From the NCBI GenBank assembly GCA_045837725.1, contig JBEWZL010000239.1:620001-684000 (forward strand): 64,000 bases of DNA, read 5' to 3'. This document shows, piece by piece, positions 19,358-56,052 of the stretch. Under the pieces are notes generated by a model, which made no database searches, was not told the origin of the DNA, and saw only the letters and a program-made list of their open reading frames with translations. Position numbers and translations under genes: made by a program. Source of the DNA: Vermamoeba vermiformis (taxonomy: Eukaryota). Every line of letters starts with the position of its first letter. Position 1 is the first letter of the stretch.

Positions 19358-19520
19358 ACTTCGGCTGTTTACATCAAATGTAACGCAGCACTATTGTTGT
19401 TATGTTGTGCTCAAAAATCATTATTCGTTGACCTGAGCGGAGAAAATGACATTTGTGCAGATCCACTTGCGAAACGCTCATTTAATTTAGTGCTAATAAT
19501 ACAACTATTCTACAATTAAT

Positions 19521-19979
19521 TTACAACACAGCAATTATATTATCTGCTGCCTCTGCTAACTCATCTCTGAGAGTGTCAAACTCGACACCGAGGATTTCAA
19601 ACGCCTTCATGACGGCAGGATCAAACCCCAGGACTTGCAAGGCTTTAGAAATATTTTTGGACTTAATAACAAATGTCTTTCTCGTGGCATATTTACTCCT
19701 GATGGATTCGTCAATTGCACTGTCAATTTGGTTTACGTCTGTCCCCAGAAGAACGGCTAATTTCTCTTTACTAGGGTCGTGTCCTAGTATTTCGCATGCT
19801 TTTTTATTCTCTTTTCTGTTGTTAATTCGTTGTTGTCTTGAATCTAACGTGGTATCTTTTAATTTAAGAACCTCTTCTGGGTCATCAAAATCCAAACCAA
19901 GTTTGTCTTTAACTTTTTCTCTATTTCCACTACTCGGCGAATTAGAATCAGCTGGCACAGGACTAGTTTCAGGATCCAT
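19521..19979 (-). CDS. Hypothetical intronless protein with five K-x-x-x-x-LG repeats
   Basis: Open frame from ATG 19979 (152 aa) with natural protein composition. Repeats KVKDKLG, KACEILG, KLAVLLG, KALQVLG, KAFEILG. Confidence 0.65.
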   Translation of the reverse strand: MDPETSPVPADSNSPSSGNREKVKDKLGLDFDDPEEVLKLKDTTLDSRQQRINNRKENKKACEILGHDPSKEKLAVLLGTDVNQIDSAIDESIRSKYATRKTFVIKSKNISKALQVLGFDPAVMKAFEILGVEFDTLRDELAEAADNIIAVL

Positions 19980-20219
19980 CGCGTTGAATCTTGCAATTAG
20001 TCTTGGACTGAAAACGAAAATTAAAATAATAAGACCACAAATAACTTGTGATGGCTTTGGGTAAAAAAAGACATAACTGCCTTTAAATTTCCAACGAGCA
20101 AGAGCAGGTGTTCCGCGATTGGTCAAAAATAAAATTGATAAACCAAACCCATTTTTTTTCCATCTCGTCTTGATATTCCTTCTCTCTTTTTCAGCTCTAA
20201 CAGACGAAGCTTTGACGAC

Positions 20220-20932
20220 ATGGATAACAGAAAAAGATCAGTCCAAACTTTTGGCCGCAAGGTATATATTAATTATAGGCCAGTGTTAACTCGAGTCGAT
20301 AAGCGATGCGAAGATTTAGAATTAATTCGATTGGAATCAATAATAATGCTGTACAAAATGCGAAATAATTTACAGCGTATTATTAATAATGGCAATTGGA
20401 ATACTTTATTTAGAACGGAAGAATAATTATTAATAATTTTTTTTATTGGATTAGAAAACCTCAGTTGCTGTTGCCTACGTTACTGATGGAAAGGGTTTGA
20501 TTAAAGTCAACGGTCAACCCTTGAGCTTGGTTGAACCTGAGCCTCTCAGATTCAAGGTTTTCGAGCCTATTTTGTTGTTGGGATCAAGCCAATTCTCCAA
20601 CATCGACATCCGCATTCGCACTAACGGAGGTGGTTATGTCTCTCAAATTTACGCCATTCGTCAAGCTATCGCCAAGGCTTTGATTGCTTGGCAACAAAAG
20701 TGTAAGTGATATTTATTATTTAATATTAATTATTATTTTCGTTCTAAACCACCTATGGACTCAAAATTAAACGACTATCATTATAGACGTCGATGAGGCC
20801 ACCAAGAGAAAGACCAAGGAACTTTTGGTTTCATACGACAGAAGCTTGCTCGTCTCTGATCCTCGTAGATGCGAACCCAAGAAGTTCGGAGGTACTGGTG
20901 CTCGTGCTCGTTTCCAAAAGTCCTACCGTTAA
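20220..20932 (+). CDS. RPS16: 40S ribosomal protein S16 (uS9)
   Basis: [49 protein letters not shown]. Two introns. Confidence 0.97.
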
Positions 20933-21269
20933 GTCGTCTGTCTATAATACTCCAAAAAATAAAGTATTTTTTAACGTTAGGCACAATCATTGGATCTTTG
21001 TATTTGATCACCTAAAATATTATTAATTGAGATAACGTTTAACCCGCCCGCACTAACCTTATAAAAATTTAAATTGCGAGGAGTAATTGCATAGATAAAA
21101 GGTTAATAAATACCAGAACAGTTTAGATCGCGATCTAGCTGTTTGTGCACAGACTACTTTAAGTCCAGTCATCCATTCTCTTTACAAAAACCACGTAATA
21201 GATGCAGCAGAGGTTGACCATCAACTATTTTTGATATTTATAATATTTATTTTGTCAAAAGAGGAGGGT

Positions 21270-22046
21270 TTATTTCTTAGCAGCTTCAGCGGCAGCCTCG
21301 GCTTCCTTTGCCTTTCGGCCGACGTTGCGGGCTTCATTGCGCAACTTGCGGAGCTTGGCGTAAACGCTTTCTTTCTTCTCGTCAGCGGTGGCAGCGCGAG
21401 CCTTGGGGACACGGCGGCTGGAAGTAAGAGGAAGAGCTTTCTTTTGTTGGGTAACCTTCTTAAGTTCTTCAGGGGAAGCATCACCAGCCTTGGGCTTTTG
21501 AGGCTTCTTGGTGTTCTTCTTCACACGCTTGGGGAACAAGACCAACTTGGATTTGTAGATTTGGAGACGTCTGACGTTCTCTTGCAAAGCCTTCTCGTCC
21601 TTGTTGGTTCTTCGGTAATCAACAGAGATACCGAGGGATTGAGCAGCAGCGACTTCAACGCCAGCGGCCTAATTAATATTTGTTAATTATTTTTCAGATC
21701 CAAAATAATAATTCAATTAAATATTAGCGCCATTTTTGCGACAATCCAACGATCATCTTCACCATGTAAACGCCCTTATATTATTATTTAAATCTAAACT
21801 TACTCTGAGTTCTTCGAGGGTGAAACCACGACCCAATCTTTGTCTGCGGTTGTACTTGATCGACATGCAACGAACAACAGGTCGGAGCAAACCAGAAACA
21901 GGCTTGGGGAACACCTTAGCAGCCTTCTCTTGGCGAGCGACGGAGCGCTTCTTCTTCTTGGAAGCTTGATCGAGGTAAACACGAACACGCTTGTCCCAAT
22001 CTTTGCGGAAGTGGGAGTTGGGGATAACGTTGTTATTTCTGACCAT
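21270..22046 (-). CDS. RPL13: 60S ribosomal protein L13 (eL13)
   Basis: NNVIPNSHFRKDW, LRPVVRC, GRGFTLEEL, YKSKLVLFP. One CDS intron and a probable 5' UTR intron at ~22056-22314. Confidence 0.97.
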
Positions 22047-22488
22047 TTTTGTTCCTATGAAGATAATATTGAGCAAAAATAATTAAAGAGTAATAAAAAA
22101 TAATTAATATCTTCCACATTATCAGCCAAAACACTCGCTAAAAATAATAATTATCCAACGAATAATAGCTATGAATTAAATTAAATGCAGTAATCCACTT
22201 GTTGGGGGTGATTATTGTTGATCACATTCGCATTTAGTTTCCTCTTCGAAACAATACTTGTGTGGGCGAGTGTAAAGGGTGTAATAATGTTGCTAGTTAG
22301 TATATGAATATTACCCTCTCTTTAGACACGTCTCTTTGACTCCGACGAACAGGAATAGAACATGAAGGAAAAGAAGCGAAAGGACAAAACATCGAAAATT
22401 TCTGCGCAATTTTTTTTCCGAGTTTTTTTGGCCCAAAATGCAACCGCGACGAAAACTATCTTCCGGTCCTCCACATTTTCTTTTCATC

Positions 22489-23081
22489 ATGACAGACGAT
22501 TTATTTGATCCACTACTAGACGTTGAGAACCAGTTCTCGCAACAAGGCCGAAATGAGGGCCGATCTGATGGCCAAACTCAAGGCTACGACGAGGGGTTCT
22601 CCTTTGGGCGCAGCAAGAGCACAGAACTCGGCAAAGAGTTAGGCTTTTATTTGGGTTGCGTCGAAATGTGGTTTTTGTTGTATTCCAAGTACCCAGAGCG
22701 TTTCCACATAAGGTAAGATCTATCATTTTCCCTTCTGTGTTTCATTCTGTTAGCTGGATCCTTCGATGATTATACAAATGTTATCTTATAATACGTGACG
22801 ATATCCTATTTTAAGTTTCAGCCTTGTATGAGCAAGGATCAATTTATCATCAGTTTTTATTTAAATCCGTAATTTTGCTCTTTACGTAACATCTTACTTG
22901 TAGGACCAAGAAATCTATAGAAAACGTTAGAAAATTAATTAGAGAATTTTCTTTCGACGCCAAGAAGGACAACATCATCGATCAGATCGAAGAGATCCGA
23001 GCAAAATTCAAGCTGGTTCAAACTCTTGTCGGTGCCAAACAAAAGATCGTGGAAACATCTGCCCCTTCGCTATCTTTTTAA
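22489..23081 (+). CDS. LTO1: LTO1/ORAOV1 (Yae1_N GxxxG-repeat protein)
   Basis: DDLFD, GRNEGRSDGQTQGYDEG, ELGKELGFYLG; second exon IEEIRAKFK...LSF. Confidence 0.85.
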
Positions 23082-23257
23082 TTGTTTATATTGTGTAAAT
23101 AAATGTAAATATTTCTTCGGTAGATCTTCGCCGCGAAAACTTCGTTCTGATTCTGTGCATTATTTTGTCGTTAAAACGAACATCATAATAGCAAAACTCT
23201 TTCATTACATATATAAAAACAGCAACAAAAGGCTAATAAGAGAAGCAAGTCAGCCTA

Positions 23258-26036
23258 ATGTCAAGTTTTGAGGCCGAGATCGGGACGGCCAAGGTCAAAC
23301 ATAGCACGGTAAATATCATGCACTATATATCACGTTGTTTTGGCCATTCTTAAACACCAACTTCGGATATCAAATCATATTAATAATATTTTTAGACGCA
23401 TCCGAAATATTTACACAGCAACAGCACTTCCCATAAATGGGCATTTGGAGCGATAGCAGAATTAATAGGTATATTTAAAATTAATTACAAATAAATTTGA
23501 TGTTCTGACTCGCGATCCAGACAATGCCGTGGATGCGCGAGCAACACGGTTTTACATCGACACAAATACAGTGAAAGAGCGCTTAGAAGAGGTCCGATTT
23601 TTGTCTTTTCAAGTAAGTACTTTCAGCGGAATAATATCTTTCGCGTCTCTTGCTAATTGGTGGCAAGGATAATGGCACGGGCATGAAGCCACGTGATTTG
23701 CACAAGATGTGCAGCTTTGGGCACTGCGACAAAGTGAAGACTGACGACTTGACACCGATCGGACACTACGGCAACGGCTTCAAGAGTGGTTCGATGCGCC
23801 TCGGCAAAGATGTGATGGTATTCACCAAGACGACTTCCGCGCGGAGCATTGCCCTCTTGTCGCAGGTAAGTCACGCCACATAACACCTGAATGCGCGCAG
23901 TATTGTGACCTCTCGCCACGACAGTCCTTCCTCGCAGCGATCGATGCAGAAGAGGTGTTGGTGCCCATGGTGACGTGGAACAATGCTGGCAAGATCACCG
24001 CGGACGACGAGCTCAATCTGACTGTGGACGACATGAAGCGCAGTTTGGAGCTGATTAAGAAGCACTCTATATTCAAGACTGAAGCAGCACTCGCCGAGCA
24101 GTTCGATTCCCTCACTTCACGCACGGGCACTCGCATTGTAGTGTTCAGATTGAAGCGCTTGGAGATGCGCAACTTGCTGGAGCTGTCGTTCAATGACAAG
24201 CACGACATTCAGCTCACACAGGACACGCCCATTGAGAAGAAGGGCGAATATGTGCACCCTGCACTCTATTCACTGCGCGAGTACTGCAAAGTGTTGTATT
24301 TGGAGCCCAAATTGATGATTTTCCTCCGCGGTAGAAAAGTGCGGTCCACGCGCATGACACAAGAGCTGTACCATCCCAAACAAGTCATCTACAAGCCACA
24401 GAAGTTCATGGATGATGACGGCGTCAAGTTGGAGTCGCGCATTGTGTACGGCTTCAACAAGCGATCCAAGCGCGAGTACGGCATGATGTTGTATCAAAAG
24501 AACCGATTGATTCGATTCTTCGTGCCTGTGGGCATGCAGAAACAGGCTGGCAGTCGAGGACGTGGTGTGCTCATCATCGTAAGTAGTGTGCGGTGTTCGG
24601 TCACAGTGCTCATCCGTCAATGACAGACTGACGCGTACTTCTTGTCGCCCACGCACAACAAACAAGAGTTCATGCGCGATGACAAGTACCGAGGACTCGA
24701 AGACGCCATCAAGACCAACCTCAACCACTACTGGAACTCGTGCAACATTGACGCGAACAAGGGAAATGAAGGCATCGGTGACTTTATGAGCAAGTTGTAC
24801 GGACGCGACAACAGAGGTCCGTATTGGATTCAGTGCGACAACTGCTTGAAGTGGCGTCGTGTGGCTGAAGATCCTGAACACCTCAAAGAGGATGTGAGTA
24901 CTGCCTATATTATATTTATATATGGTGACTCTGATTAACTGGTGCGCAGTGGACGTGTGCGATGAACACCGATCACAAGCACAACAGTTGTTCCATACCG
25001 CAACAGCCCGATGACATTATTCCGCTCATTCCTGCGTATGTATTTCCGCGTCAGTCATTGCATACATTCTGACACAGCGACAGCAAATACAAGCGAAAGG
25101 AGCGCAAGAGCACCAAGTCCAAAGCAGACGGGGCTGAGAGTGACGACGAAGTGCCAGACAACTTCAACGTCGAGGACGACGAGCTGATCGAGCACGAGGC
25201 GAGTGAGTCCAGCGAGGCACCTGAGCCTCCCAAGCGTGCTAAAGCAAGTGCACCCAAGCCTGCACCAAAAAAGGCAAGTGGCGGCACTACTCCACGCCAG
25301 ACAGCGAAGAGGAAGCGATCAGAAGAGTCAGATTCAGAGGAGGTCGTTGAACCTGTCAAAACTAAGCGACCGCGCCGTGCTGAAGCGAGTTCTGAGTCAG
25401 TGCCAGCACGTGTCACAGTCAGCGACACAAATGGCCATTCACTGAACGGCAGCACACCCGAACCCAAGCGACGTGCAGCAGAGAGAAGTCGTGCCAAGCC
25501 AGCGAGTGACGAGTCTGCAAGTGTGACACCTGTCACTCCAGCTGCTCCAGCGACACCTGTCACCCCCGTGTCAAAAGCTAACGGCACTGCAAGTCGAGCA
25601 CTGAGCCAGTCCAGCAGTGATCGAGATCTGCAAATATTATTCAGCAAGCTGCAAGTGATCTGTGCACGACTCGGTGGCAAACCATATCAAAATCTAACAC
25701 TCGCCAAGCTGAAAACATTGGACGAGGTACGTGCCATATTAGTACTACGCTGTATTTGTACTAACCAGTGCGCAGCTCAAATTCTGCGAAATGATTGAAG
25801 AGAAGTTGCAGTCCGCGAGCATGTCACTCAAAGAGCGCGTGGCACACTTGACAGCGCACACACCGCGCGATGAAGAGCCTGCTGCGGAGGTTGAAGAACA
25901 GCCGAGCGATGTCGCAATGACTGGCGATGAAGACACGCATCACGTGACTGACACCCACGTGAGTGACAGCAACGACAACGACAAGCACGTGATTAAAGAC
26001 GAGGAAGAGCGGCCAGTATTCTTCAATTTCTTGTAA
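23258..26036 (+). CDS. MORC: MORC family GHKL ATPase with CW-type zinc finger
   Basis: [73 protein letters not shown]. Confidence 0.92.
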
Positions 26037-32910: not shown

Positions 32911-35091
32911 TTAAAACACCATTTCATGTTCATCATCGTGACGTGCCTCGTGTTGCATCAACGAGGGAGTGGGTGAGTAGTAGTAGAACATGGGGTAGTT
33001 GAGAATGTTGTAGTAGTCCGCTGTGTGGTGCGTTAGACCAATCAGAATATAGACAATACGAACTTACTCGTGTACAGATCAGCATAGCGCTGCACTTGCA
33101 TGCCAAAAAAGGACAGTTTGAGGCCACTGCGGAACAGACTTCCGAACCACGTGTTGTACTCATTGTTCAACTCTTCAAGAGCCTCGCGCATCTGCTTGCG
33201 AATGAGCGTGGTGTCGGGCTGTGACTTGGCCGCGTAGTCCATGCCTCGGTAGATCTCTGACTTGATGTACTCGAGCTTGAGCAGGCGTTGGTAGATTGGC
33301 TGCACTTGTTTCCACACTTGCAGCTCTTTGCGCAGCTCAGGCACGACGAGCAGTGTGCGCCAGCCATGTTTCTTCTTTGAAATGATAATGTCTGCAAAGA
33401 TGTGATCTCCCGTGTACAGCACTCGATCACCGCTCTGAATGACACATGTCAACAATGAACTCACATTCACTGTGTCAAAATGAGGTACTTACAGTGACAT
33501 TTGCCAACTTTTCAAACAGCGTCATGTTGCCACCTTGATACACGCGGCCAGGTTGGAACTTGCCAGTCACGTGACCAATCTTCAACTGACCAGTCTCTTT
33601 GTCTACCTCGCGCAGGGTCGTACCTTTCATGAAAAATGCGGGCTTGGCAGCACTCACAATGACTTGGTCTGAATGTCTTAATGTTAGTGGTTGAGTTCTT
33701 TGCTCAGATAATGCATCATCACTCACCAAAGTATTCCATCCACGAGGTGTACTGGTCGTTGAAGCCATCGAGCAGGTACGACATGACCTTGTCGGTGTAG
33801 TACCAGGGACTGTTGGTCAGCAAGAAGGTCTGCTTCTTCCACTGCTTCAAGGTGTGCAAGAAGATGGACAGCTTTTCAGTGCGCACAATGTACCGTCCAA
33901 TGTCCTCGAGTGTCTTCTTCTTCAACGGACCATTGTCTGTGTGCACGCTAGGAGAGTGTGAGTGACACGTGTCAAACAAAGACTTCTGAGTCACGTACTA
34001 GTCAATGGCATAGCGCACATCGTGGAACAGATTGGCGTAAGAGATGTCTTCAATCGTCACGTCCTCGCTCTTCTTCAGCTGCGAGATGCCCTCGAGGTGC
34101 GTGACCAGATCTGTGTACAAACACGCCTCGGGCAACGTAAAAAGCGTGTTGAGGAGGTAAAAGCGCTTGCCAATATCATCACTGTGCACGCGCATTGAAG
34201 GATAGAACTCTGAAATGTTTTTTTTCTGAATTTTAGTTCGGCCGTGAACACAGGCGCTGATATTGCCAAAATTGTCTATTTTTAAAAAATTCCCCGTTTC
34301 AATGTCCAAAAAGAGACCTCTGCGATTATATTAGAACAAAATTATAGTGTGGTCATAATAACGTACCTGATTGAGTAATTAGGGTCGTATTTGAGTTCAG
34401 AAATGCTCTTCGGATAACCCATCTGCAACAACTTTTCGATAGCAAGTTCGTATTCAAGGAATTCATATTCCTGCGTGTAGACTATAACGCACATTAGTAT
34501 ACATATAATGGGGTGTTACGCGCATCGGTTACGTACTGGCTAACGTGTAGTCCATATCAACTGAAGTTAAAGGTAAGTCAAGGAAAATTAAAGTAAGAGC
34601 TTGATTAAGCTGAAATTCAAGTAGCAGCTAGTGTTTAGGATACAGCCAAAGTAGTCAATGGTGTCGAGTCTGAGCGGTCTATTCACGAATATACGCTGTT
34701 CGATGGGTCTCTTGTACATACTCGCCGGCGAAAGTTTTTCGAGATCAGCCTTGGTGAGCGAACCTTTATAAATGCTTTCCAAAATGTCATCTAGAGCATT
34801 GCAATTAGTGCTGGAACATTTTGTGATTTTTTTGATTTAATTTAATTATTTTTCGAATTACGCACGTTCGCAAAATTACAAATTGCAACTACTTAGTGAT
34901 GTAGAGGACCAGAAATACGGAATTACAATATAAAATATAATATCCAAAATAATCAGGAGCAGGTTTAGGTCAATTACAAAACAGGAAAATCTTTGTAAAC
35001 TGAATTTCACCGACCGACAGTGCTTACCGATCACTTTCTGCTTTTCGAGTCGTTCCATGCCAGAGTGTGTTAATGGGTTATCTCCTTCCAT
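32911..35091 (-). CDS. NT5C2: Cytosolic purine 5'-nucleotidase (cN-II, HAD family)
   Basis: RIFVNR, GFDMDYTLA, LNTLFTLPEA, FLLTNS, VSAAKP.FF, LYTGDHIFADI, GWRT.L.VPEL, RYADLY. Confidence 0.93.
34561..34643 (-). other. U12-type (minor spliceosome) GT-AG intron
   Basis: Donor GTATCCT, branch site TTTTCCTTGACT ~17 nt from the AG. Removal restores GFDMDYT. Confidence 0.8.
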
Positions 35092-35722
35092 AATAGAGTT
35101 TTGATTAAATTGGTGTTGCTTGGATTGCTGTTGTGTTGAAATTGAAAAATTCAATTGGCGAAATTTACTTTAGTTTTGCTACCTTTGCTTTCTTTTGAAG
35201 TAGGGTAAGTATACAGATTGGGATATACTTGACGGCATGCTAGTCGAACGGTTGAAGATTTATGCAAAGAAGAGGTAGGAATAATTTGGTTGCTTCGGAG
35301 ATTGATCCTTCAAGCCTAATTTTGGATTTACGAGCCGACAGTAGATTGGCATCGACAACGTACTTACATGGATAATTAAGATGAGGGAGTCAAGAAGTGA
35401 TGGATTTAATTTGTTCATCGGAGTCTGGTGGATCCGTTCTAACAAAATTTCACTGAAGTGCCCAAAAATGTCCGCGAGATTAATTGTTTGATTCAATAGT
35501 TCTGTAATGTAATTTTTGTACATAAACGAACTTCCAACTACATTTGTTGTACATTAGGCCTAATGTACAATAGAGTACTGTATAATTATTATTGACTGCT
35601 AAGACGGGAACAACTGTTCACTAAATGTGAAATTTGTTCATGAAAGGAATCACATGATATTTTCAGCGAGTCTAACAATATTTTATTCTTGCTGCTCAAA
35701 TTAGACACAAACACAACAAAGT

Positions 35723-38520
35723 ATGGACCCTAGAGTAATTCGTCGTATTAAGACTGTTCAAGACCACTTGATCACTCCTGCCTCTGAGGCGGATGTAGTG
35801 CGTGCTGAAACCGCCGGACAAGAGTACGGTCAGACCTTGAATGCTGAAATGCAAACCATGGCCGACGAGCGCAAGAAGTCCACATTCAATGTGCGCGAGA
35901 TGACCTACTTCTTGGACGAGGGACGACAGAACACTGAAGTGAAGGTGCGGATTTGAATTTTATTGGGTAAATTTAACCACTAATATATTTAATTATAGGA
36001 GCGCATTGCGTTACAAATCGAGCGTGACCCCGTCCTATTGAAGAAGAGATTTTTCGATTATTCGTTGGAGGAAGATCGCGCGAGGTAAGATCTCAGTTTC
36101 GGACTACGAACTAGTCGCGAATCTTTCTTTTAGTAGCAAACTAATCACTTAAATAATATTTTTATCACGTCCGTTCATCAAAGAAGCCTTTAAAAATTAT
36201 GATCTGGGGAACTGCGTTATTCCCAGCCGCGGGATGTACCGGACAGTACCCTTGAAATTCGTCCCAATACATCCCTATGATATATTATTGATCATATGTG
36301 CCTATATTTCCAGAACAATGGCTTCAGTTCGTCGCTCCGTCGCCGTTAGAAAACAATTGCGTGATCCGGCACTGACTCGTGTGTTTGGCGAGTTGATGGG
36401 CAAATATGACCGCGCATTTACGATGCGCACTTATGTGCACGACATTTTGTTCAACGAGACTATCTGGGCTCAAGGCACTGCTGAACAATACAAAGAGTGG
36501 GAGCCTCTGATCAAGAACTACAACGTGATTGGCTGCTTTGCCATGACTGAAATGGGTCACAGCTCATTCTTGCGAGGTAAGAGAGCATAGTGGTCGTATA
36601 ATAGAGGTCAAGAGATACTTCAAGTGTCAGATGTGTGAGCGGAGCACTAATCAGTTTCGTACTCCGAACAGGACTCGAGACCACAGCAACATTCGTGAAA
36701 GAAACAGATGAGTTCATCATTCACAGGTCTGTAGCGATGAGGACTGTATTTGTAGCTCCTATTAACGTGCTTGTAGCCCCACACTCACCTCGACCAAGTG
36801 GTGGATCGGCATGGCTGGTCAGGTACGTCCTTTGATTGGTTGATACAGAGGCCAGTGATTGACACGTGTCAAACAGACTGCTACACACACCGTCGCGTTG
36901 TGTCAATTAAAAGTTGACGACAAAGAGCACGGCCTCTACTGGTTCATCGTGCCCTTGCGTGACCGACACACCGGTGAATTGATGCCTGGTGTCTCGGCGG
37001 GTCATTTGGGCGCCAAGATGGGTCGCGGTGGCTTGGACAATGGTTGGATTCAGGTACTGACCGCACTTTGACACGTGTCACGTGATGTCTAACTCGTATT
37101 TGCAGTTCTCGAATGTCCGTGTGCCTCGTGGAAACATGTTGATGAAATGGGCTCAAGTAGCACGTGATGTACGTACTGACTAGTGTATGACAGGTGTCAA
37201 ACAATGACTCACAACGAATTATCAGGGTACTTTCACACCTCCTCCTAACGCAGCTATCTCTTACGCCACATTGATTGGTGAGCGCATCCTCGCGGTGCGT
37301 CCATTCATTAATAGCAAATTATGATCACGTGATTAATCTCCGTTCAGATGGTTTCAGTGCACGATCAAGTCGGTCAATGCGTCACTATTGCCACTCGTTA
37401 TGCCGCTGTGCGTCGTCAAGGAGCACGTGACGAACAAGTGTTGGACTACCAGTCACACTACTCGGTCCTGTTGCCCATCATTGCTGGTGTCTACGCCGTG
37501 CACTTCTTGCGCCGCACACTGGAGAAGTCGTGGAAAGACACCTTGGAGGGCTCGACTGAAGAGTTGCTGCGCGTGATTCAAGACTACCACGCCATTGCTG
37601 CTGGTCTCAAGGCCTGGTTTGGCTGGTGGGGTGCTGATGCTCTTGAAGCCATTCGTCGCAGTACGTACTAGTCTTGAGTGTTCGAGGAAATTTTCTAACA
37701 TGAAACAGCTCTCGGAGGTCATGGCTACAGTGCTTACAACGCCGTGGCTGGTCACCTCGCTGACTACGGTGTCATCACCACTGGTGGCGGTGACAACACT
37801 ATTCTCGCACAACAATGCGCGCGTTATTTGTTGAGCTCGTTGCAGCGTGCTCGTCAAGGCAAGGCGCTGTTGGACTCAGTCAAATACTTTGGCAAGTGGA
37901 AGGAGCTCTTGGGCCAGAAGAGATTCACTGTGCAACGCGCTGAAGAACTCAGCAATGCCGAGAACTATTTGACTGCCTTGCGCTGGTTGTCCGTCACCTT
38001 GGTTGGCAAGGCTGGTGAACGATTGGCCAGTGCGATGAGCAGCGGTCAAGACCCGAGTGATGCGTGGAACAACAACTTGATGGAGCTGATCAACTGCTCC
38101 AAGCCTCATTCAGTGCTCTACGTGGTGGAGACCTTCCATCGCATGATTGACACGGCTCAAGATGCCTCGCTCAAGCCTGTCTTGAAGCAGTTGTGCGACT
38201 TGTTTGCCATGCACTATTTGAAGCAGTTCTTGGTGCACTTCATCGAGCACGGCTACATGACTGCCGAACAAGCGCAGTTGATTCGTCAATACGAACTCAC
38301 TCTCTGCAAGCAATTGCGTCCCAATGCCGTGCCACTCGTCGATGCACTCAACATCCCCGATTGGATCTTGAAGGCTCCAATTGGTCGCTACGACGGCAAC
38401 ATTTACGAGAACTATTTCCGCACCATTCTCGAGGCCACTACTTCTGACACTGTGCACGGTGGTACTACTCCGTATTGGAGCAAAGAAGTTGCACCTCTTA
38501 CTAGCCCTCACCACCAGTAA
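35723..38520 (+). CDS. ACOX: Peroxisomal acyl-CoA oxidase
   Basis: GCFAMTEMGHSS, GLETTAT, TKWWIG, DNGWI, IATRYAAVRRQ, GGHGY, LRPNAVPLVDA, IGRYDGNIYE. N-terminal PTS2-like RIKTVQDHL. Confidence 0.95.
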
Positions 38521-45172: not shown

Positions 45173-45402
45173 CATTATATTTATACTTTAGACGTGCCAA
45201 AATTCGCAAAAGAGGTCGACAACTTCCCTCTTACTGTGGTATTCAACCCTAAAATCGAATTTTTGCTTCGACACGAGAAAATCCAGATGATCGAGTCTTG
45301 TCTGTCTGTGCCGGGCTTGACAGGCAAAGTTGAACGATACAACAACTTAATTATGACATACGTTGATGAGAATGGTATCGAGAAGAAGCTTGGTGCCACA
45401 GG
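45173..45402 (+). pseudogene. Orphan exon resembling the middle of a peptide deformylase
   Basis: AG/GT-bounded exon FPLTVVFNPKI...ESCLSVPGLTGKVERY...YVDENG matches PDF motif 2 and its flanks. No GxGxAAxQ or HExxH exon is visible nearby. Confidence 0.6.
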
Positions 45403-45998
45403 GTAAGTGTTGATTGTGCGCTGCCACCGGTGTCGTTGTTTAATATGGTAAGTCATCGTTATATTGAATATCGTAGAATGCCTAATTAATTCGATTACAT
45501 GTCGCATTAAATTTATTTTCGAATTGAATTTCAAAATTTACCTTCCTTATTTCTAATGTTGGTATATAACCTCAGCCTCAATATTGCTCTATGGAATTTA
45601 ATCCCGTGGCCAGTAGGTTTAGCTCCACTCACACTCATAAAACGATTTCTCCTCCATCTGATCGACTTACTTAACGAGTCCGACTAGCCAAAATTGAGCT
45701 AATTAAAGCGTCATCGATCTCCATTGCGGTGTTATTCCCAGGTTAATTCATGAAGCTCGTGCAAAACTGCGCAGAGATTAGCGGGAGATTAGCGGAACAA
45801 TTACTCCGGTCCATTTCGCTCCAAATACGGCATAATCCGACTACACCGATCACACCATCGCAAAAATTCTTGTTTCGAAAAGGTGCGTTATTTATTTGTA
45901 ACTTTGTATCGAACAGACCACGGCAGATCCTCTTGTTGGAAATTCAAGTCAAGGCAACAAAGATCCAGGACCTGGTCAACTGTGTATAATATATTTAA

Positions 45999-48900
45999 AT
46001 GGACAGCATTTCAATCAGTACTGAATGGCCCGATGATCCTACTAATCTATATGGCTGGATTTCTTACGCAATCGTACGTAAGAGCGTATTTGCGCTCAGA
46101 TCTGTCATGAAAACTCAACCGACTAATTTCATACTTTAGTCTGTGGCTATATTCCCCGCTCTATTAATCATTTTTGCTCTTGCTGCACCATGCGTGTTTA
46201 GCATCGTCTGTTGCTGCCGAAAGTAAGTGTCAGCCAATCAACCAAGCTAGATCTGGTTTTAAATTGCGTGTGTACGAATTTTAATTTCAATTTCAGGTAC
46301 GGCAAATGTGGTTCCCTGCCGACAGACTCTTCTGACTATAACTTGCGAGAACGAGCTACAGCAGCAGCAGTTACTTCGGTGGCTGTCGGAATTATTATGT
46401 ACGTGCATTGTTCATTGGTGGATCTTCTAACCGTAGCATTGTCAGTGGTGCTACCATTTGTTTAGGTGTAATGGCGCCTCTTATTCGAGAAGATGTTCGC
46501 AATTCAGTTTCTACTGTTACTTACGCAGCGCGGGGTGTAGCGGGATTTATTGAGGGCTTCGACGCATCATTGGACAGCTTAGGGTAAGCTCCGAGCATTG
46601 AAATATACACACCATGTATCTAATGACTTGAATAGGGGAGTTATCTTGTCGACGGTTAATGATACCTTGAATGAAACCAGACAATTTCCGATCGAAGAGT
46701 TTCTCCTGAAAACTTTTGCTATTCAAGACTCAATTAACATGGTATGGCATAAAAGACGTTATAGTGGTGTGGATTATCTAATTTTCTATATTTAGACTCG
46801 AAATGAAGTGTTCAATATTCGTTCAGAAACTTTGCAAGTGGATTTGGTTTTGGAACTGTTGCGAAGTGCGTCAAAGTTTAATTTATCCATGCAACGAATA
46901 TTAAACGTTCTTAATAATAGATAATATGTTGGAGGTGGAGCAGGGGCAGCAAAATGGATCAATTCCCAATTTTACGATCCCAGATGCGTTCTCCTTTAAC
47001 GCTACTGAGGACTCTGACCTGACCCTGAACTATATGAACGAGGGACTACAAGCAGCAATTGATAGAATGAACAGTCTCCGCGATCAAGGTACGGTCATGC
47101 GAGGTCTGTAATTAGCTCTGGAACTAACTCCACAAAATTCAGTGCTCTCGATCTATCTCTCGCTGACCACTCAGTCCTCTATCAATGTTGAGCCTATTAT
47201 TCAGCGCATTGATGATATTCAGAACTCATTTCAAGGCCAATTGACCTCAATGACTAGTGTCATTGACGGCACTGTCGATGAGATCAACTCGGTACGCTCA
47301 ACTGTCACCACCGTCGATAACATTAGGTAAAGCAAATACAAATCTACATTGTATGGTCATGCTAAACGTACATTAGAATGTGGGCCCTGCTTGCTATTCT
47401 CGGCGCAAACATTCTTCTGATCTGCGCTTTCTACTTGTTTTTCTTTGCCAAAGAGAACAGACTTCTCAAAGTGTAAGTATCATTATAATACAGTGCTATC
47501 TAAAGGCCTTCAGCTAATAACATTCAATTTCAGCCCTTTGGTCTCGATCGCGTTCTTTGTCGTCATTTTATTCTTAATTACTGCGGTCTACTTCGTCATG
47601 TGGAAAGCGAACAAAGATGTCTGCGACAATACAGAGTCATATTTACAGAAACCTAGTGTCCAGAACTCACTCAAGCAGTTGCTTATGACAGATGCGACTG
47701 CCATTGTTCGAGTTGGTTACAACACCTCCTCCGCTGATTTGGAGCCTAGCGGCAATACTACTGTGCAATCTCCGATCGACAAAGTACTCGGAGCAGTATT
47801 ATCAGTAAGTGCATTGAGCGTCCATTCGAATTATAATTCTAATTATTCCATGGACAGGATCCAACACCAATCCTGTATTGTTCCCGCGAGACCACAATTA
47901 TGCAACTCTATAATCTCGACCTATTGGACATTTTCGGACTCGCTGATATTCTCAACGTGACTATTTCAAGCGGAGTTCAGACCTTTACTGAAGAGATGAA
48001 GCGACAAACTGACATAGCAGATGCGCTCGTTCAATTGAACGACCTTCAATCTGGACTGGAAGGAATGCGCAATATGTTGAACTCCTACAGCTCAAACAGC
48101 ACTCACGTCATGGAACTCGTTGCCAATGCGACGATCCAAGTTTCCGATCTGTCCCAGTACGGCTACAACGAAACAGCGCACAATGAGGTGATGAACGATA
48201 TTAATGGTGTCACTGTCACCTACAACTTGTTCTATGATATTTATAATGTCTCCTCGCTCAATGTAAGTCAAGCATCAATTCTTTGCAATACTGCAGCGGA
48301 TTAATCCTTGTGTTCCAAAAAAGGCAAGTGATCCAACTTTCAATGGATTAACGCCCGCAGAACGTGATAATTTGCAACAAAATCGCGACAAAGCAGTCTC
48401 AATGACTCAATATCGTATGGGCGTCGAACAAAAGATTCAACCGACCTTGGATTTGCTCCACAACATCACGGGCAACTTACAGATGTTGCTCGGACACGTC
48501 CAGAACATCAACGGTTCTATTCAAGGTATGTAACAGTGATTGAATACTGCCCAGCCCCAGTAAGGCTAACGCTCCTATTCAGTCATGCTGGACAAGAAAG
48601 CCATGCTCGTGACTCAATTGACGGAGATGCAAGCGGAGTTGATGGCTGACTTGCACAAGATCTACTTAGCCCTCGATAGTGTGATCGACAATGTGCACAA
48701 CAAGACTCAGCGATTGGAGTTCGGTCGATGTGCTTGGCTCGGTGCATTCTGGGCTGGAGGAGATCCCGACAACACGGGCACTCCTTCACTGCACGAACAG
48801 TTCTGCGACGCGTTCTCGGTGCACTTGACTCTCTCGACTTGGGCCCTGTTCATCCTCGCACTCGCCATGGTCGTGGCGTGGGCACTGATGGTCGTCTATC

Positions 48901-49199
48901 ACAATCGTTTGAGAAGGCCCAAGACCCCGCCAGTGCTTGGCGCACACGTGCACGTCAATCCCTTCATGCGCCCTTCGTCCTCTGCTGGTCAAATTGCCGC
49001 GTCTACAGTCTGGGGTCACGGTGCTTGGGGCCCGACGAACCCTTACTACGCCTCACCCGTGGCAGAGTACGTGAATCCGTACTACGCAGTCAAAATGACC
49101 GTGATCACCGCTGATAACGCTAACAACCCTCACCCTGGAAAATCAGACGACACACCACGAGACAAAACTCCGCGAGACAAAACTCCTCGCGATCCTTAA
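45999..49199 (+). CDS. Prominin-like five-TM glycoprotein; start uncertain
   Basis: TM1, Cys-rich loop (CCCRKYGKCG), TM2, large helical N-glycosylation-rich loop, TM3-TM4, second large loop with cysteines, TM5 and a cytosolic tail. Many short introns. Confidence 0.55.
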
Positions 49200-49330
49200 A
49201 ATAATTCATAATTACCGTCTGACTCAGATCAAGGTATTAAATTTTGAATTTTTGCGATGTAAATACTTGTAAAATAAACTGTACATGTTCAATGATATCG
49301 CACATGTGTTTATCTTTGTACGGACTTCGA
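49158..49330 (+). repeat. ~170-bp direct repeat, copy 1 (last 13 codons and 3' region of the prominin-like gene)
   Basis: cgagacaaaactccgcga...taattaccgtctgact(t)cagatcaaggtattaaattttga...tgcgatgtaaatacttgtaaa...tgtttatctttgtacggac.tcga is shared with 52221-52390. Confidence 0.95.
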
Positions 49331-49380
49331 ACTTCGCGCCTTTTTTTATTTCTCTTTTATTTTAAACAACAAGTACACAA

Positions 49381-52145
49381 ATGGAGCATAATAATAAGTG
49401 CCGTTTGTTTACAAAAAAATGGGCAATAGCCACCGCAGACGCGGAGCATCGGTTAGACAACTATAGCGAGGTGGAATACGGCGAGCGGATGGCAACGCCC
49501 AGCAAAGCTTGCAACAAAACTGATGACGTCCATGGTAATTCTACTTCAATGTAATTACGCTGAAACTAATAGAAGTTCTCGCAGATATCATCCAAGAACT
49601 TCAAAAGATTAATATCAAAACACCTGGCAAATTACGCAGTTTTTCTAAGGTAACTTACTTTCCGTATGAATTAATTTAACAACCTTACAGAGTCTTTCGT
49701 CAAGCTCTAGCGCAAAATTTTCGTCTCCTGATTTTCCTAACTCGACCCTTGCAGATCATAACATCACTTTTTTGGAAGGAGCAAGTATCTCCGAGCTTGC
49801 TCAGAACGGTTTCGCAGACTTTCCTTTTATAATATTTGAAAAAGAGTTGCCCTTAGAGAGAGCGAGCCTGTCCAAGCTCCAGCGCTCTGTAATCGATCAA
49901 GAGCTACCCGTACGTTTCTTTTTATATTTATTGACTCACTAAAGATTTAATCTATAGGTTCACGACTACAAAGTGATTTGGCTCGAAAAAGGCGATAAAC
50001 ACGTGTTGACCAAGAATGGTGCAAACTGGGAAATTGAAGACGAAATAACCGAAGAACGCAGCGTCCTCTTCCAACCTTTTTTAAAGAAATTTGGTAAGAA
50101 GAGCCAAACAGGACGCAGGTCGGAAGACGCCGTTGGTGCGCCGATCCGAGACTTGTGCGGTGACCTGTTCTTCGTTAGCACAGGGTAAGTCATTTTTCGG
50201 TTAATAGCAATTTTGTCAAAATAATGACAGCTATTATTAGCAACAATCACCATATGCAGAATAGCCTTTATCAAGGTCCACTCACCTGCGAGCATCTAAA
50301 GCCGGACTTCGTCGCTGGTCCATTTGATATCATCGAGGAGAAAGTAGTTTCTGCTCTTGGTTTAGAGTCGCTTTTGGAGACAGCCGATCTCCTTTCAAGT
50401 TTTGATGTTGTTCCTGGTACTACAGTACACCCACTGCCATTTATTGTGGGCGAACTCAAAAAAGAAAACAAACCCTATTGTGCAGAGGACGGGTAAGTCA
50501 ATATCGAGCGATTAAGCGACAGTTAGCTAACTCCGCTTTAAGATACAAAGTAATGGTCGAGATGCTCATTGTTCGACTCGCACTTGACGCCTTGTTCGAG
50601 AAACCACCAGCCTATACATTCGGCATCCTTGAGGCTCATCACGAGTGGAGAATATTTGCAATGGTCAAAAATGGCGCAGGATATACCGTTGCCGAGATCT
50701 TCTTCGCGAATGATGCGAGAATGTTGGATCGCGTCTATATCGCCACCGTACTGCTTCGTTTGGCGACGTTCTTTGTGTGGCAGTTGCAATGTCTTAAACT
50801 TGTGTCTAAAGAACAACAAGAAGCGCTGAAGGAATTGTTTAAGCAAAAACAGACGCCTCGGACCACTCGCGCCAGTCATGAAAAAGAAACCAATGACATA
50901 GATGACGGATCTGATGCAGATGACGAGGATGATATAAATGACGGAGATGACGGAGACCCAAGTAAGAGAAGGAAATCTGAGGAGAAGAGTGAAAAAGGAC
51001 AAACGAATAACTTATCGGACGTGCGCCAGGTAAGTAATGCCGATGAAGTTTAACTACTATAGTGTTCTAATATTGTACAGTTAAACGGCAACGTTTTTTT
51101 GGCCAAGTGTCAAGGCGAAGATTGCATCATTAAAGTGGGGGAGATCCGCAAAATTCGACGAGAGTATACTAGATACAGGGAACTCCGAGGTAAATAACAA
51201 ATGCAATCAGAAAATATTTTACTAATTACAATTAGATTCTCAGTACATTGCTGAGTTACGGGCCGCGCACCAACTGAGTGCTACACGCGCATTCCTCGTG
51301 TTGAAACCATACAAACCCCTTCCCGTCTTCAAGTCAAAAGCTGACTTATTGCGCATAACAAAGCAATTACTCAGCGTATGTAAATTTGTCCAATCATATG
51401 TGTTAATATTGGGGTAGGTTTTGGCAGTCTTGCATGAACGAAGATTGGTTCATGGCGACATTAAAAATGGAAATATAGTGTGGGATGAAGCTACCAATAG
51501 CATCAAATTAATCGATTTTGAGGTAACGTTGGCATTAATGCTCCCTTATCACTGAATTCTAACGGCTATCCAGACGTGTGTACAGTTACCAAGCGGTGCT
51601 TTCTTTAAAACGCATCATGGAACAGAGCTTTTCAAAGCACCGGAGCTGCTTGAGGGACGTTGGTGTTCTGAAAAAGTCGACATATACTCGGCTGGTTTAG
51701 TGTGCGCAGCCATGGTTAGTTTCTGTTGTTCAACCGTTGGAGTCGCTCAACTAACGCGTTAACTCAGGTGTACGGTGGACAGATTCACACCACACATGCA
51801 CGTGAAGCGATACTCAAAGGCGTATTTTCGTCGCAAGTACCTCCGGAGTTTGCTGCTGTCATTCGTATGTTGAGGAATGGTTTTTTAACCAAACTAATGA
51901 TTGAATTAGCATTATTAAAGGGCATGCTGGCCGCAGCACCAGAAGATAGAATATCTGCCGACGAAGCTTTAACGATGTTGAATACTTTGGAAAATGAACA
52001 GGTCGCAACTGGCGTCCTGCCGTCTTCGGTGCCAGTTCGTGATGACAAAGAAAATCAACACGAAGCTAAGCCAAAGAAACCATTGGCTCAGCCTCAGCGA
52101 GCTCCGTTGGAGGGCATTATTAATTTAAGTCGGGTTCATAAATAA
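49381..52145 (+). CDS. PD-(D/E)xK restriction-endonuclease-fold domain fused to a Ser/Thr-type kinase (Crinkler/CR-effector-like)
   Basis: Twelve exons splice in frame. Nuclease part: SEDAV...KPDF...IVGELKK...FGIL....WRIF. Acidic linker. Kinase part: IIK, HGDIKNGN, IDFE, GTELFKAPE, DIYSAG, DRISA. Confidence 0.8.
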
Positions 52146-52220
52146 GTTGTTCCATGTAAATATGTAATAACGTAATAGTAAACTGTAAATATCTTTTCCG
52201 CCGTACTCGCGTCCACGGTG

Positions 52221-52390
52221 CGAGACAAAACTCCGCGATACAAAACCCTCGCGAGCCTCAAAATGATAATTCGTAATTACCGTCTGACTTCAGATCAAGG
52301 TATTAAATTTTGATAAATTTTGCGATGTAAATACTTGTAAATAAATTGTACCATGTTAACGCTATCTGTTTATCTTTGTACGGACCTCGA
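52221..52390 (+). repeat. ~170-bp direct repeat, copy 2
   Basis: Colinear with 49158-49330, roughly 85% identical by eye with small indels. Confidence 0.95.
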
Positions 52391-52406
52391 TCTCACTATT
52401 TACACA

Positions 52407-52916
52407 TTATTTTTGATCTTCCAAGGCGTCCAATGCATTTTCTTCAGTAGGTTTGGCTACTTTAACATCAAGTGCTACTATTTTAACTTTATCGCACGTC
52501 ACAGTCTCGTTGTCTGTTCGAAATGTTGCGTTTTCCAGAATAAATGTCCACACGTTGTCACAAAATCGGTATGTATGTAAATGACCCTAAAATATTTATT
52601 ATAAATTATAGACACCATAATGGATGCATTAATCAAGCAATAGAATTGTTTTGAATTTTTAATAAAAATCGAAAAGTTGATAACTTTGTATTCTTACCTT
52701 GAAAGAAGCCTTGTTCTTAACTCGTGTCGACAATGCCTCAGCAAACGACTGCGAGGATTAGTACCATATTGATAGCCAGTGATGGCTGGATCTTACCTTG
52801 TCAAACTGAGCCAAAACTTTTTCAGCCAGTTCTTCGCTGAGCACGTTATTGTTCTTGAGCTCTTCTAATGTGTCTGTTAAACAATCTCCTAACGTTGTTT
52901 TTCGGTAGATTGACAT
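52407..52916 (-). CDS. TOA2: Transcription initiation factor IIA gamma subunit
   Basis: [39 protein letters not shown]. Two introns. Confidence 0.95.
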
Positions 52917-53351
52917 TGTGTTCGTCTTGGTTGCAAAATAAAACTGAATCCAAAACTGTTTAATGTTCTTGGCGAACACACACTCGAATAAAATTAATAA
53001 AAATCATTCTTATTTAACCAAATCTCCTCACGAAGCTAGCTGTAGTCCAGTACAGGTTCCGTTTTTTAGATGTACGAACACTTGGTAAATAAGCGAATAA
53101 TTCTATCACACTCTATATTCAACCGACTCTGCAAGTACGTTTCGTAATATTTATTCTGAATCGTCTCAAGTGACATCAAATTACATCGCTTTGGCACCAA
53201 AATACGAAGTGACAACATGGACTCGCTGCTATTGTGTTTGACTGCGTGTCAACAGCGTGCAGTGCTGTTGTGAACCGAGCTCTGCACTGAATCAATCGGT
53301 GCGTGCTCTAGGTCCGTTGCTGATGCTAGAAAATTGACTGCCAGGCAACAG

Positions 53352-56052
53352 TTAGACAGTCCAAGGTGATTGGCTGCTCGAATTTGGATCCGAGTCAGCA
53401 GGCAGCAATGAGATTAATTTGCTGCGCAGAGTTTTGAGTCGTTCGAGGATCTGATCAAAGTCCGGGCGATCAGCTGGATTGCGCGCACAACAGTCGCGAA
53501 TGAGCTGTGCGTATTCAGCGGGGATATTGGGAGGCATTTCGGGCAATTGACCCTAGCGCAGTGATTAGAACAGTGTGACACGTGTCAATCAACGAGCTCG
53601 AGACTTACCTGATCAATGTACCGCAGCACAGTGATGGCATCGAGACCCTCGTACGGGGCACGGTGACTGATCAACTCCCACAGCACAATGCCGAAGGAAT
53701 AGACGTCGCTCTTCTCGGTGTATTCTGACGACTCGTTCACGACTTCAGGACCTTGCCACGTCAAAGTGCCTTTGTACTTGCGACGCGAACCACCGCTGTT
53801 GGGCTCAGCGTCCTCAGCAGGCGTGTCTTCAATGATCTTGCTCAAGCCAAAGTCCGCGACTTTAATGTGATAGTTCTCGTCCACGAGCAAGTTGAGACTC
53901 TTCAAATCGCCGTGCAAGATCTTGTGCGCGTGCAAGTACTGCATGCCGCGTGCAATTTCAATGGCAATGCCAGTCTTCTTGGGCCAGCCGAGCACAGACT
54001 CCTTCTTGAGCAACTCAAACAAGTTGCCACCGGGAATGTACTCGGTCACGTAGCACACTGCCGGGCCATCTAGACACGCGCCTAAAAACAGCACGACATT
54101 GGGATGACGGAGCTTGCTGGTGATGATGGAAGGTCAGTTCAGCTCAAGCAAAGCACGCAATCAGTGCACGTACCTGACCAAAGTGATTTCTTGCAAAAAT
54201 GCCTCGAAGCTTTCAGCCGACAGGGCACTCTTGAGCATCTTGACCGCGACTTCAATGCCGCGCCACGTGCCCAAGTACACGTCAGAGAACGAGCCTTCAC
54301 CGATCTTCGCGGTCAATTTCATCTCGTTGTAGGCAATCTCCCATTGGAAGGGACTGGCCTTGCGCTTGATCGAGAGCGGCATGTCAAGCACCTCGCGCTG
54401 CGCGTGATGATGGACGGGCACGTGCGGCTGAGGCTGCAAGACTTGAATGGCACGTTGCAACAAGTCACGGATTGACGTCTCGGTGACAGGTGTCACTTCG
54501 AGGGGCGTGCCAGTGGTGCCGTGGACATTGGGATTGGCTCCTGCCTCGAGCAACACCTTCACAATGTCGATGTAGCCCATGCGCGCTGCCCAATGCAGTG
54601 GTGTTTCACCTGGTTCATGAACGACTGTCAGTTTCACTGAAAGCAGTGCGGTGACATCTGTAAAAGATCTCGTGGACTTTAAGACTCGCTGCTGGCCTCT
54701 ACTTAATTCTTGTGACGAATTTTCAGCTGAAATTTGAGATTGTAAACTGACCAGGAAAAATAACAGCAATGATTTCAAGAATGACGTTGCGAATTGGTCA
54801 AAAACAAGCAGCGAATATTCGTGCGATGAATTTCAAGCAGCTTGATCGTATTGGTGGAATTTAATATGATTTAAAGCGCGTACCGTGATCATTCAAGCTG
54901 TTAATGTTGGCGCGATTGTCGATCAGTGTTCGGACAATAGCAACATGGCCCTATTTAGGAAATTCATGAGAATAAAGATCTAATTGATTCGTGTTCTAAG
55001 TACTATTCTAAATTTCGCTCAAGAAAAGTTTTTTTCAGGTTCACATCCGGACTCACCTTCCAACAAGCGTTATGTAACGGAGTCTCGCCATTGAGATTTT
55101 GAGCGTCAATAAGTGCACCTTTCTATAAGAGTATTAGATATGCAATGTATAATAAAGTATTGACTGGTGATGAGGGCAATTAATAAAAAACTAGATCTAC
55201 AAAATCTTTTTAACTTTAGTTAGGGCAATTTGGCGTGGATAAAGCCGAACTTGATTTAACAATAGGAACATGACTTATTAAACGATTTAATATGCGCAGT
55301 AACGTCGTGCAATTTTAACAGGATTTTTGTAGAAATCTCGAATTATTTTTGATTATAATATTTGCTGCGGAGCCAGTTCGGATCTGTTTTCGAAAGACAC
55401 GCAGCGTAAAATCTTTTTGATTCTTAAAATCTTAGCATATTCTCAATAACATACCAGCAACAGTTGTTCAATTGTGTCTTTGTAATTGTCAGGAAAGTTT
55501 CTTGCATAATAATGTAACGCTGTATTTCCTTCTCTGTTGCCTTTTTCCGCGACTAAATAATCATATTAATATTGGCATATAATAGAGACATGTAAAAGTA
55601 ATCTTGAATAACAAATTAGGAAAATAAAATAAAAACCGATAATAATTTAAAAAATAATTACCAGCAATATTAGGCTGCGACAGGAGCATATAGAACATGT
55701 CCTTATTTTTGCTAAGCGCAGCAAAATGTAAAACAGTCCATTTGCTCGTAGATTCGATGGCATTAATGTCAGCTCCTGCGTCAATTAGCAACTGCGCGAT
55801 CTTGAGGTTGCCCAACTGTGCCGCAGAATGCAATGGGTATCTTCCGACGTGATTAGGGGTATTGACGAGTGCTTTCTTCTTCTTAAGCAAAGCTGCCACG
55901 AGATCTTCGTCGCCCATCTCGGTTGCTTGGGCAAGCAGCTTGACTTTGTCTTTTCTCTTCATACTAAACGAGTTCTTCCTAGAAATTATTTTGTATGACT
56001 TGTCATTTGTATTGTTGTTCTTATTATCAAAGTATAAACTGGCTGTCTCCAT
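53352..56052 (-). CDS. Ankyrin-repeat tyrosine-kinase-like (TKL) protein kinase
   Basis: Ankyrin repeats (YPLHSAA, TALHY, TPLHNAC, TPLHWAA), then IGEGSFSDVY, VAVK, HGDLKSLN, DFG, GTLTWQGPE, DVYSFG. Confidence 0.92.

Follow-up and report, generated by a model that had tools for sequence, protein, structure and literature searches.

The 64,000 bp stretch of Vermamoeba vermiformis DNA analysed here (GenBank assembly GCA_045837725.1, contig JBEWZL010000239.1, positions 620,001 to 684,000 of the forward strand; this whole stretch is called the window, and positions are counted from its first nucleotide) contains a 12-exon gene that is predicted to encode a nuclease-like region followed by a protein kinase domain. 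The gene stands by itself between two direct repeats, R1 and R2, in the space between two convergent genes, a multi-exon membrane-protein gene on the left (the upstream gene) and the TFIIA-gamma gene on the right. The features that make up this arrangement are as follows:

48581–49199, + strand: last exon of the upstream membrane-protein gene, ending ...TPRDKTPRDKTPRDP, with its stop codon at 49197–49199 (from the listing of open reading frames, ORFs)
49158–49333, + strand: R1, direct repeat copy 1, which comprises the upstream gene's last 13 codons, its stop codon and 134 nt of its 3' flank
49334–52220, + strand: bracketed segment of 2887 bp, one gene with flanks of 47 nt (5') and 75 nt (3')
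49381–52145, + strand: nuclease-like/kinase gene, 12 exons, 743 amino acids (aa), open spliced frame of 2232 nt
52221–52393, + strand: R2, direct repeat copy 2, decayed, with the stop gone and the frame broken (RDKTPRYKTLASLKMI...)
52407–52586, − strand: last exon of the TFIIA-gamma gene, stop codon at 52407–52409, covered by the RNA runs X21 and X5 (below)

An earlier note on this DNA, made from the letters alone, had pointed to such a bracket, which the analysis confirms and which occurs only once in the window. Blastn aligns R1 (49158–49333, 176 bp) with R2 (52221–52393) at 85% identity over 183 gapped columns (E 1.7e-50), and in a MAFFT alignment 15 of the 167 aligned bases are mismatched and 15 further columns are gaps (Kimura two-parameter distance 0.096). 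The match resolves into colinear blocks at offsets of 3060–3068 nt (repeat families D1, D4, D5, D6 and D8). R1/R2 is the sole dispersed repeat that self-blastn (E ≤ 1e-4) finds in the 64-kb window, and since the rest of the window is repeat-free, the pair is far beyond chance. Blastn found no further copy of the repeat or of the 2.9-kb segment in the window.

R1 carries, as had been claimed, the upstream gene's final 13 codons (RDKTPRDKTPRDP) with the stop codon (49197–49199), and it includes a 15-nt tandem coding unit, CGAGACAAAACTCCG, at 49158–49186 (Tandem Repeats Finder, TRF). What appears to be a degenerate 15-nt unit lies at 49143–49157, directly to the left of the R1 edge (77% identity to the unit, 26-nt register, family D1). 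R2 holds both 15-nt units without the stop and without an intact frame; R2 is the copy that decayed, and R1 remained as the upstream gene's end. Since R1 is native to the upstream gene, the repeat is host sequence and not a terminal repeat owned by an inserted element. The right edge of R2, which had been placed 16 nt before the stop of the convergent gene, is in fact 13 nt from that stop. Removal of 49334–52393 leaves the stops of the upstream and TFIIA-gamma genes about 150 nt apart, so the expected ordinary convergent gene pair is indeed restored.

The 12-exon model of the bracketed gene was reproduced, with an open coding sequence and 11 GT..AG introns of 41–56 nt (versus 53–61 nt in the neighbour's introns), most of which have CTAAY-like branch sites:

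49381–49534, 49585–49649, 49691–49909, 49958–50184, 50241–50492 and 50543–51029, + strand: exons 1–6
51081–51189, 51236–51375, 51418–51522, 51574–51714, 51768–51864 and 51910–52145, + strand: exons 7–12

Two further DNA sources, X7 (an air metagenome, depth 2) and X10 (a water metagenome), were compared with the window, and two RNA runs, X5 and X21, were mapped to it; runs with small word shares (X11–X20 and X24) do not enter the evidence. Among at least eight strain indels inside the gene, the eight that were listed (seven in X7, one in X10) include six in predicted introns, which make up about one fifth of the gene's length; the other two are a 3-nt insertion in exon 1 and a 1-nt deletion in exon 6. 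This preference for predicted introns supports the exon model. The GC content at third codon positions (GC3) of the gene is 0.46; of the 23 other ORFs with at least 200 aa, 21 lie at 0.49–0.76.

The segment has none of the usual marks of a transposon, in agreement with the earlier claim that it lacks a reverse transcriptase, a transposase, terminal inverted repeats and a poly(A) tail. Neither the 12 sense exons nor the three longest antisense ORFs match a transposase or reverse transcriptase family in Pfam, there are no inverted repeats at the segment ends (the three inverted pairs found all lie elsewhere), and the segment ends ...CCACGGTG, with no run of A. An origin as a retrogene was considered and rejected, since the 11 introns are retained, which rules out retroposition, and there is no poly(A). 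A scan of the window with Rfam gave 0 matches.

At its 3' side the insert also appears complete. The window has 15 matches to the octamer TGTAAATA where 1.65 would be expected (about 9-fold; 0 of 100 shuffles reach 15). At the sites checked, the sense strand carries it 3–60 nt past a stop codon, and by this placement the octamer probably serves the organism as a 3'-end or PUF-type (UGUAAAUA) signal. The sites are:

23094, 23104, 23408, 27734, 28294, 32898, 44254, 45159, 47640, 49258, 52155, 52184, 52326, 52336 and 52397: TGTAAATA octamers
52155–52191, + strand: two TGTAAATA motifs, taken as the bracketed gene's own 3' signals, 10 and 39 nt past its stop

The two octamers that follow the stop of the bracketed gene indicate that the insert is a complete transcription unit at its 3' side. 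R1 contains one octamer (49258) and R2 two (52326 and 52336, + strand). TFIIA-gamma has its own at 52404–52397 (minus strand), in the 13 nt between its stop and R2; because this lies outside the repeat, TFIIA-gamma did not need the duplication for its motif.

The two halves of the predicted protein are identified with different firmness. All outside domain searches were run exon by exon and not on the spliced 743-aa protein, which weakens every domain call given here. The relevant parts of the gene are:

49958–50843, + strand: putative PD-(D/E)xK-like region, exons 4–6 (first 100 codons of exon 6)
50893–50956, + strand: acidic linker tandem repeat, coding, period 9/18 (TRF)
51081–51990, + strand: protein kinase domain, exons 7–12

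The Pfam Pkinase profile (PF00069) matches exon 9 (4.9e-7, 29.8 bits, profile positions 111–142) and, colinearly, exon 10 (1.7e-6, 28.1 bits, profile positions 147–190), each of which singly falls below the 31.7-bit cut-off. The spliced translation has the kinase catalytic motifs IIKVG (with its K), an HGDIKNGN loop (563), DFE (584) and APE (608); in DFE the Asp of DFG is retained and the Gly is replaced by Glu. By these motifs the C-terminal half is likely an active-looking non-RD protein kinase.

For the N-terminal half, the nuclease assignment is a lead. Exon 5 encodes KPDF / SFDVV ... FIVGELKK, a candidate D...ExK motif with ELK at residue 293; GELK is retained in P0010, the sole homologue ORF that reaches this site, and in the strain variant P0024, too few sequences to establish conservation. 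In the ESM Atlas the best named clusters for the first 100 codons of exon 6 are fungal PDDEXK_12 (PF20516) with a score of 0.93 (176/256 features), a lead without an alignment, as shuffled sequences reach 0.9 in 4–10 of 100 cases; the PDDEXK_12 family set accounts for 14 Atlas hits of this exon 6 part. The Atlas leads from exon 5 are weak (PDDEXK_12 at 0.75, with the family on 15% of cluster members, and Pkinase_fungal at 0.79). A modelled half domain of P0010 has a helix, three strands and two helices. A full-text search found no literature mentioning PDDEXK_12 or PF20516. We therefore call the N-terminal half "PD-(D/E)xK-like" as a lead. The gene had been described as encoding a restriction endonuclease (REase) plus kinase protein: the kinase part stands on the Pfam matches and catalytic motifs, and the REase part is a lead from D...ELK and the Atlas score, with no hidden Markov model or fold match (below).

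Relatives of the protein are few and fragmentary. With 100 residues of exon 6 as query, HMMER found 11 proteins at E ≤ 0.001 among 1.84 billion representatives, 10 of them credible; the eleventh, P0008, is an FN3/NHL repeat protein and was rejected as spurious. The 10 credible relatives are short ORFs on unannotated contigs (Logan, ENA, JGI/IMG and NCBI), and their identities are 95% for P0001 (a strain variant), 52% over 46 residues for P0009, and 29–37% for the eight others. They have in common an ELVWxNPPxFxFG...EWRxFxM core. In the window, exon 6 closes with ...DVRQ directly before GTAAGT, and at that point at least six homologue ORFs finish with ...VS or ...VT; these ORF ends suggest that the intron position after exon 6 is common to the family. 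P0016 lacks that intron and continues into a part that aligns with the window's exon 7 (39%, pairwise E 3e-07), and this continuation indicates that the order nuclease-like region, linker, kinase is a family trait. No matching protein longer than 285 aa was found with the exon 6 query, or longer than 434 aa with the family alignment; although such absence is weak evidence, the family thus has no annotated full-length member in the searched collections. A word-index protein search with exon 5 returned a 97% strain fragment only. Scans of metagenome, viral and genome contigs for related loci gave pattern matches, none of which was upheld by tblastn.

By its architecture, then, this would be a gene from a family without annotated members and with a conflict-type layout that is already known, since nuclease-kinase proteins recur in two conflict systems, the Crinkler effectors and the Spok spore killers. 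According to the part of the review PMC5289972 used here, REase + kinase accounts for about one in six C-termini of CR (Crinkler/RHS-type) proteins, an example being Phytophthora infestans CRN8 (Zhang et al. 2016, as reviewed there), and the REase is thought to be toxic and the kinase to be a regulator. The bracketed protein shares with CR effectors the order of a nuclease-like region before a kinase on one chain, which does not imply homology to CR families. Unlike them, its 743-aa model has no LxLFLAK or HVLV header (regular-expression search) and its N-terminus is not hydrophobic; its sole FLAK string is at residue 474, in the kinase N-lobe, and the 11 introns are a further difference. No sequence link to an annotated CRN protein was found, as the HMMER matches are ORF fragments and no longer protein was matched.

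The Spok proteins of Podospora, as described in the portions of Vogan et al. 2019 (PMC6660238) drawn on here, have an N-terminal region, a predicted PD-(D/E)XK nuclease, a linker and a kinase in a single protein; in Spok3 the nuclease lysine is required for killing and the kinase aspartate for resistance, and Spok genes are found at different places across strains, have spread between species, and circulate with broken or absent alleles (PMC6660238). The bracketed gene is like Spok in domain order (its nuclease part being a lead only) and in that broken alleles circulate. It is unlike Spok in lacking the Cys cluster C-x3-C-x13-C-x5-H-x7-H described there (the 743-aa model was searched with the pattern C-x3-C-x10-16-C-x4-6-H-x6-8-H) and in having no QxxxY after ExK. 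Spok is known from ascomycetes, and the same portions of PMC6660238 report no long flanking duplications for Spok genes. The likeness to Spok and CR is one of architecture and not of sequence comparison. On that footing the protein appears to resemble most closely the nuclease-kinase conflict proteins (CR effector C-terminal modules and Spok drivers), and its mode of action would most likely be that of a toxic nuclease restrained by a linked kinase, in genetic or inter-organism conflict.

All three DNA sources, the window, X7 and X10, have the segment in place. X7 covers 49422–52651 in six abutting contigs: the gene is followed as far as 52245, and coverage resumes at 52280 and extends through to TFIIA-gamma, so that 34 nt of R2 are left uncovered. 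In X10 the two flanks are present together with gene pieces and an R2 that is more diverged and adjoins TFIIA-gamma. A joint that skips the segment, the mark of an empty site, was found in none of X5, X7, X10 and X21, although contigs cannot show absence. In the records listed, X10 and X7 differ from the window by about 2% (49 of 2154 and 60 of 3195 positions, respectively), so the divergence between R1 and R2 is 4–5 times the sample divergence, and the duplication probably predates the split of these strains, barring gene conversion. With copies about 10% diverged versus about 2% between the sampled strains, and with all DNA sources filled, the event is, by this comparison, apparently an old one. 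X7 has 0 differences from the window in 51987–52651 (the last ~660 nt), ~2–5% further upstream and ~4.6% in 49422–49989, a mosaic that suggests recombination between strains within the gene.

No reads of the gene turned up in either RNA run. The spliced contigs of X5 cover both neighbours and have a depth of zero in 13 of 13 bins over 49443–52393, and the raw RNA reads of X21 likewise cover both neighbours and have a depth of zero in 14 bins over 49216–52393; the zero in X21 may also mean that this diverged lineage lacks the gene or has a version too dissimilar to map. X21 carries the same species label, yet 137 of its 191 mapped reads (window 47400–54200) are only 90–95% identical, and the label seems to span clearly diverged lineages.

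A broken allele is also present. In X7 one nucleotide is missing at 50894, on the border of the acidic 9/18-nt repeat, and its loss leads to a premature stop. Two Logan contig ORFs, P0001 and P0013, both end ...ETKT, at a point where the window and P0012 (exon 6 on a separate NCBI contig, 99% identity) read through; P0013 is otherwise like P0012. This kinase-removing frameshift is thus on at least two haplotypes, unless the site is prone to recurrent error. The low GC3, the lack of RNA and the frameshift allele together make the gene look accessory and dispensable.

We regard an old insertion of one gene, as DNA, into the spacer between the convergent genes, with duplication of the target, as the best reading of this locus, and we hold it with moderate confidence. 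The bracket, the single enclosed unit, the host-derived repeat and the lack of transposon hallmarks make it the most economical history. A lineage-restricted gene would have entered the ~150-nt spacer as genomic DNA, in the form of a full transcription unit with its introns, and the 176-bp stretch that spans the final 13 codons of the upstream gene and its 3' flank would have been copied to both sides of the insert as a very long target duplication, after which R1 would have kept serving the upstream gene and R2 would have decayed. Staggered-break fill-in and template switching are both known mechanisms, and either could have acted here. In the first case a fragment may have been captured between breaks with a 176-nt stagger, and fill-in would have followed; in the second, replication or repair may have switched templates at the end of R, gone on to copy the gene at another locus, and come back at the start of R. 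The duplication would be the work of host processes, and the gene's own nuclease need not take part. Dispersed duplication or templated insertion of genes at the DNA level, with duplicated flanks, is a known class of event, and the locus resembles it in its retained introns, its gene-sized piece, its lack of transposon hallmarks and the target copies on either side. A 176-bp duplication that preserves both neighbours' ends exactly is unusually tidy for a templated insertion, a tidiness that would follow if selection keeps only insertions that spare both neighbours' ends. The earlier note had gone further and proposed a candidate effector gene that moved itself, possibly with its own nuclease; insertion with a long target duplication is supported by the bracket, the single complete unit and the host-derived repeat, and the self-movement, own-nuclease and Crinkler-effector parts are supported by no test.

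Several results weigh against the insertion. No outgroup or empty site was seen in the samples, and the direction of change (insertion, or the repeat copied behind a resident gene) rests on parsimony. The single-copy status of the gene covers the 64-kb window only, and, apart from CG, the junctions lack diagnostic microhomology. In the middle of the repeat the copies are 96–100% identical (families D5, D6 and D8), which could reflect constraint or gene conversion and makes the age estimate rough. On the protein side, hmmscan with Pfam assigned PDDEXK_12 to none of the exons or homologues at E ≤ 0.1–1, a sequence search of the PDB gave only rows at E ≥ 0.79 for the family profile and none for exon 5, and a half-domain model (P0010 + 11 family rows, mean predicted local distance difference test score 68) had no meaningful fold match in the PDB.

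If the nuclease-kinase gene is instead an ancestral resident, only the 176-bp end of the upstream gene need have been copied 3 kb downstream, by a template switch or aberrant repair. Such a history takes one small event without any foreign DNA; R2 is clearly a decayed copy, the introns resemble the neighbour's in size, and the arrangement is identical in every DNA source sampled. Chance must then, however, place the right edge of the source within the 182-nt spacer that precedes the ATG and also drop the copy into the short spacer after the stop, and by our rough estimate it would frame exactly one gene less than 1 time in 10; the low GC3, the absence of RNA reads and the frameshift alleles fit an accessory newcomer better, and we consider a resident gene unlikely. 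Another source of R-gene-R order is tandem duplication of the R + gene unit (3.06 kb), which is a common kind of event and yields direct repeats in this order, followed by loss of the second gene copy. That second event must start at the end of R and stop 13 nt short of the TFIIA-gamma stop, and blastn found no remnant of a second gene copy in the window, so we give this course little credence. A circle that carried the gene and a copy of R and integrated by a single crossover at R (Campbell-type) predicts the R-insert-R geometry exactly, but the circle must already hold R, which presupposes the gene beside R, and nothing tested favours circles; we take it to be very improbable. An assembly artefact, or a collapsed or expanded repeat, is hardly credible, since artefacts give identical copies and these differ (15 mismatches and 15 gap columns; ~9% of aligned sites), independent X7 contigs span the passages from the gene into R2 and from R2 into TFIIA-gamma, X10 has the flanks and gene pieces, and exon 6 is encoded on the separate NCBI contig.

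The proposal that the gene is a self-mobile single-gene element, whose own PD-(D/E)xK nuclease cuts with a wide stagger and leaves a 100–200-bp target-site duplication at each insertion, draws on the fact that the bracket frames the gene alone, on the nuclease-like region of the protein, and on the literature that places Spok genes and CR effectors at varying genomic positions and ties them to mobile DNA. No second copy is present in the 64 kb, however, and word depth in X10, a weak measure, shows no excess on gene pieces (0–3.5) over flanks (0–6.2). The at least six homologue ORFs with apparently the same intron position are what an ordinary gene family would have, and only 10 credible relatives were found among the 1.84 billion representatives. 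The proposed mechanism is without precedent, we know of no transposon class that employs a nuclease-kinase protein, and host repair or replication leaves an identical footprint; we judge self-mobility distinctly improbable. A still bolder version, in which the gene would be a Spok-like selfish toxin-antidote gene outside the ascomycetes that spreads as a bare one-gene DNA cassette and leaves a ~170-bp target duplication, is a long shot.

To our knowledge, the route by which single nuclease-kinase genes relocate is not known. The locus has the look of a clean and unusually legible insertion scar, with both neighbours' ends intact. Should the bold Spok-like version be true, the ~170-bp footprint could be used to find further such insertions, and it would show directly, for the first time, a trace left by nuclease-kinase conflict genes (Spok, CR effectors) as they relocate. 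Further copies, each with its own long duplication, would mean a new way of moving; if the gene is single-copy, it would be a neat but ordinary DNA-level gene gain in a compact genome.

The two flanking genes were identified as follows. The upstream gene is transcribed, with GT..AG joints at 47472/47534, 47804/47858, 48262/48324 and 48523/48581 in the spliced RNA contigs of run X5. The label "prominin-like" that it had been given found no support, as 0 of its 10 scanned exon-level ORFs reach the Pfam threshold and none matches Prominin. The convergent gene is TFIIA-gamma, as had been proposed (Pfam TFIIA_gamma_C 4.4e-23 and TFIIA_gamma_N 5.6e-16; ORFs 52410–52586 and 52758–52907, minus strand). 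The next gene to the right, at 53585–54832 (minus strand), encodes ankyrin repeats and a TKL-type (tyrosine kinase-like) protein kinase (PK_Tyr_Ser-Thr 1.2e-42); it was considered as a local source of the bracketed kinase and rejected, since the two are only 28% identical over 101 residues. Elsewhere in the window, the stretches 18000–24000 and 34000–36000 are low in GC (0.39–0.44 versus 0.45–0.58 elsewhere) and hold a 238-aa ORF at 19524–20237 (minus strand; GC3 0.32) that matches no Pfam family. Near this ORF, a 48-nt palindrome at 19043–19090 is the only other non-self row in the self-blastn of the window. These low-GC stretches may be other accessory or inserted DNA. Just 5' of the membrane-protein gene, an exon-level ORF at 45173–45406 (+ strand) has a polypeptide deformylase match (2.3e-12).

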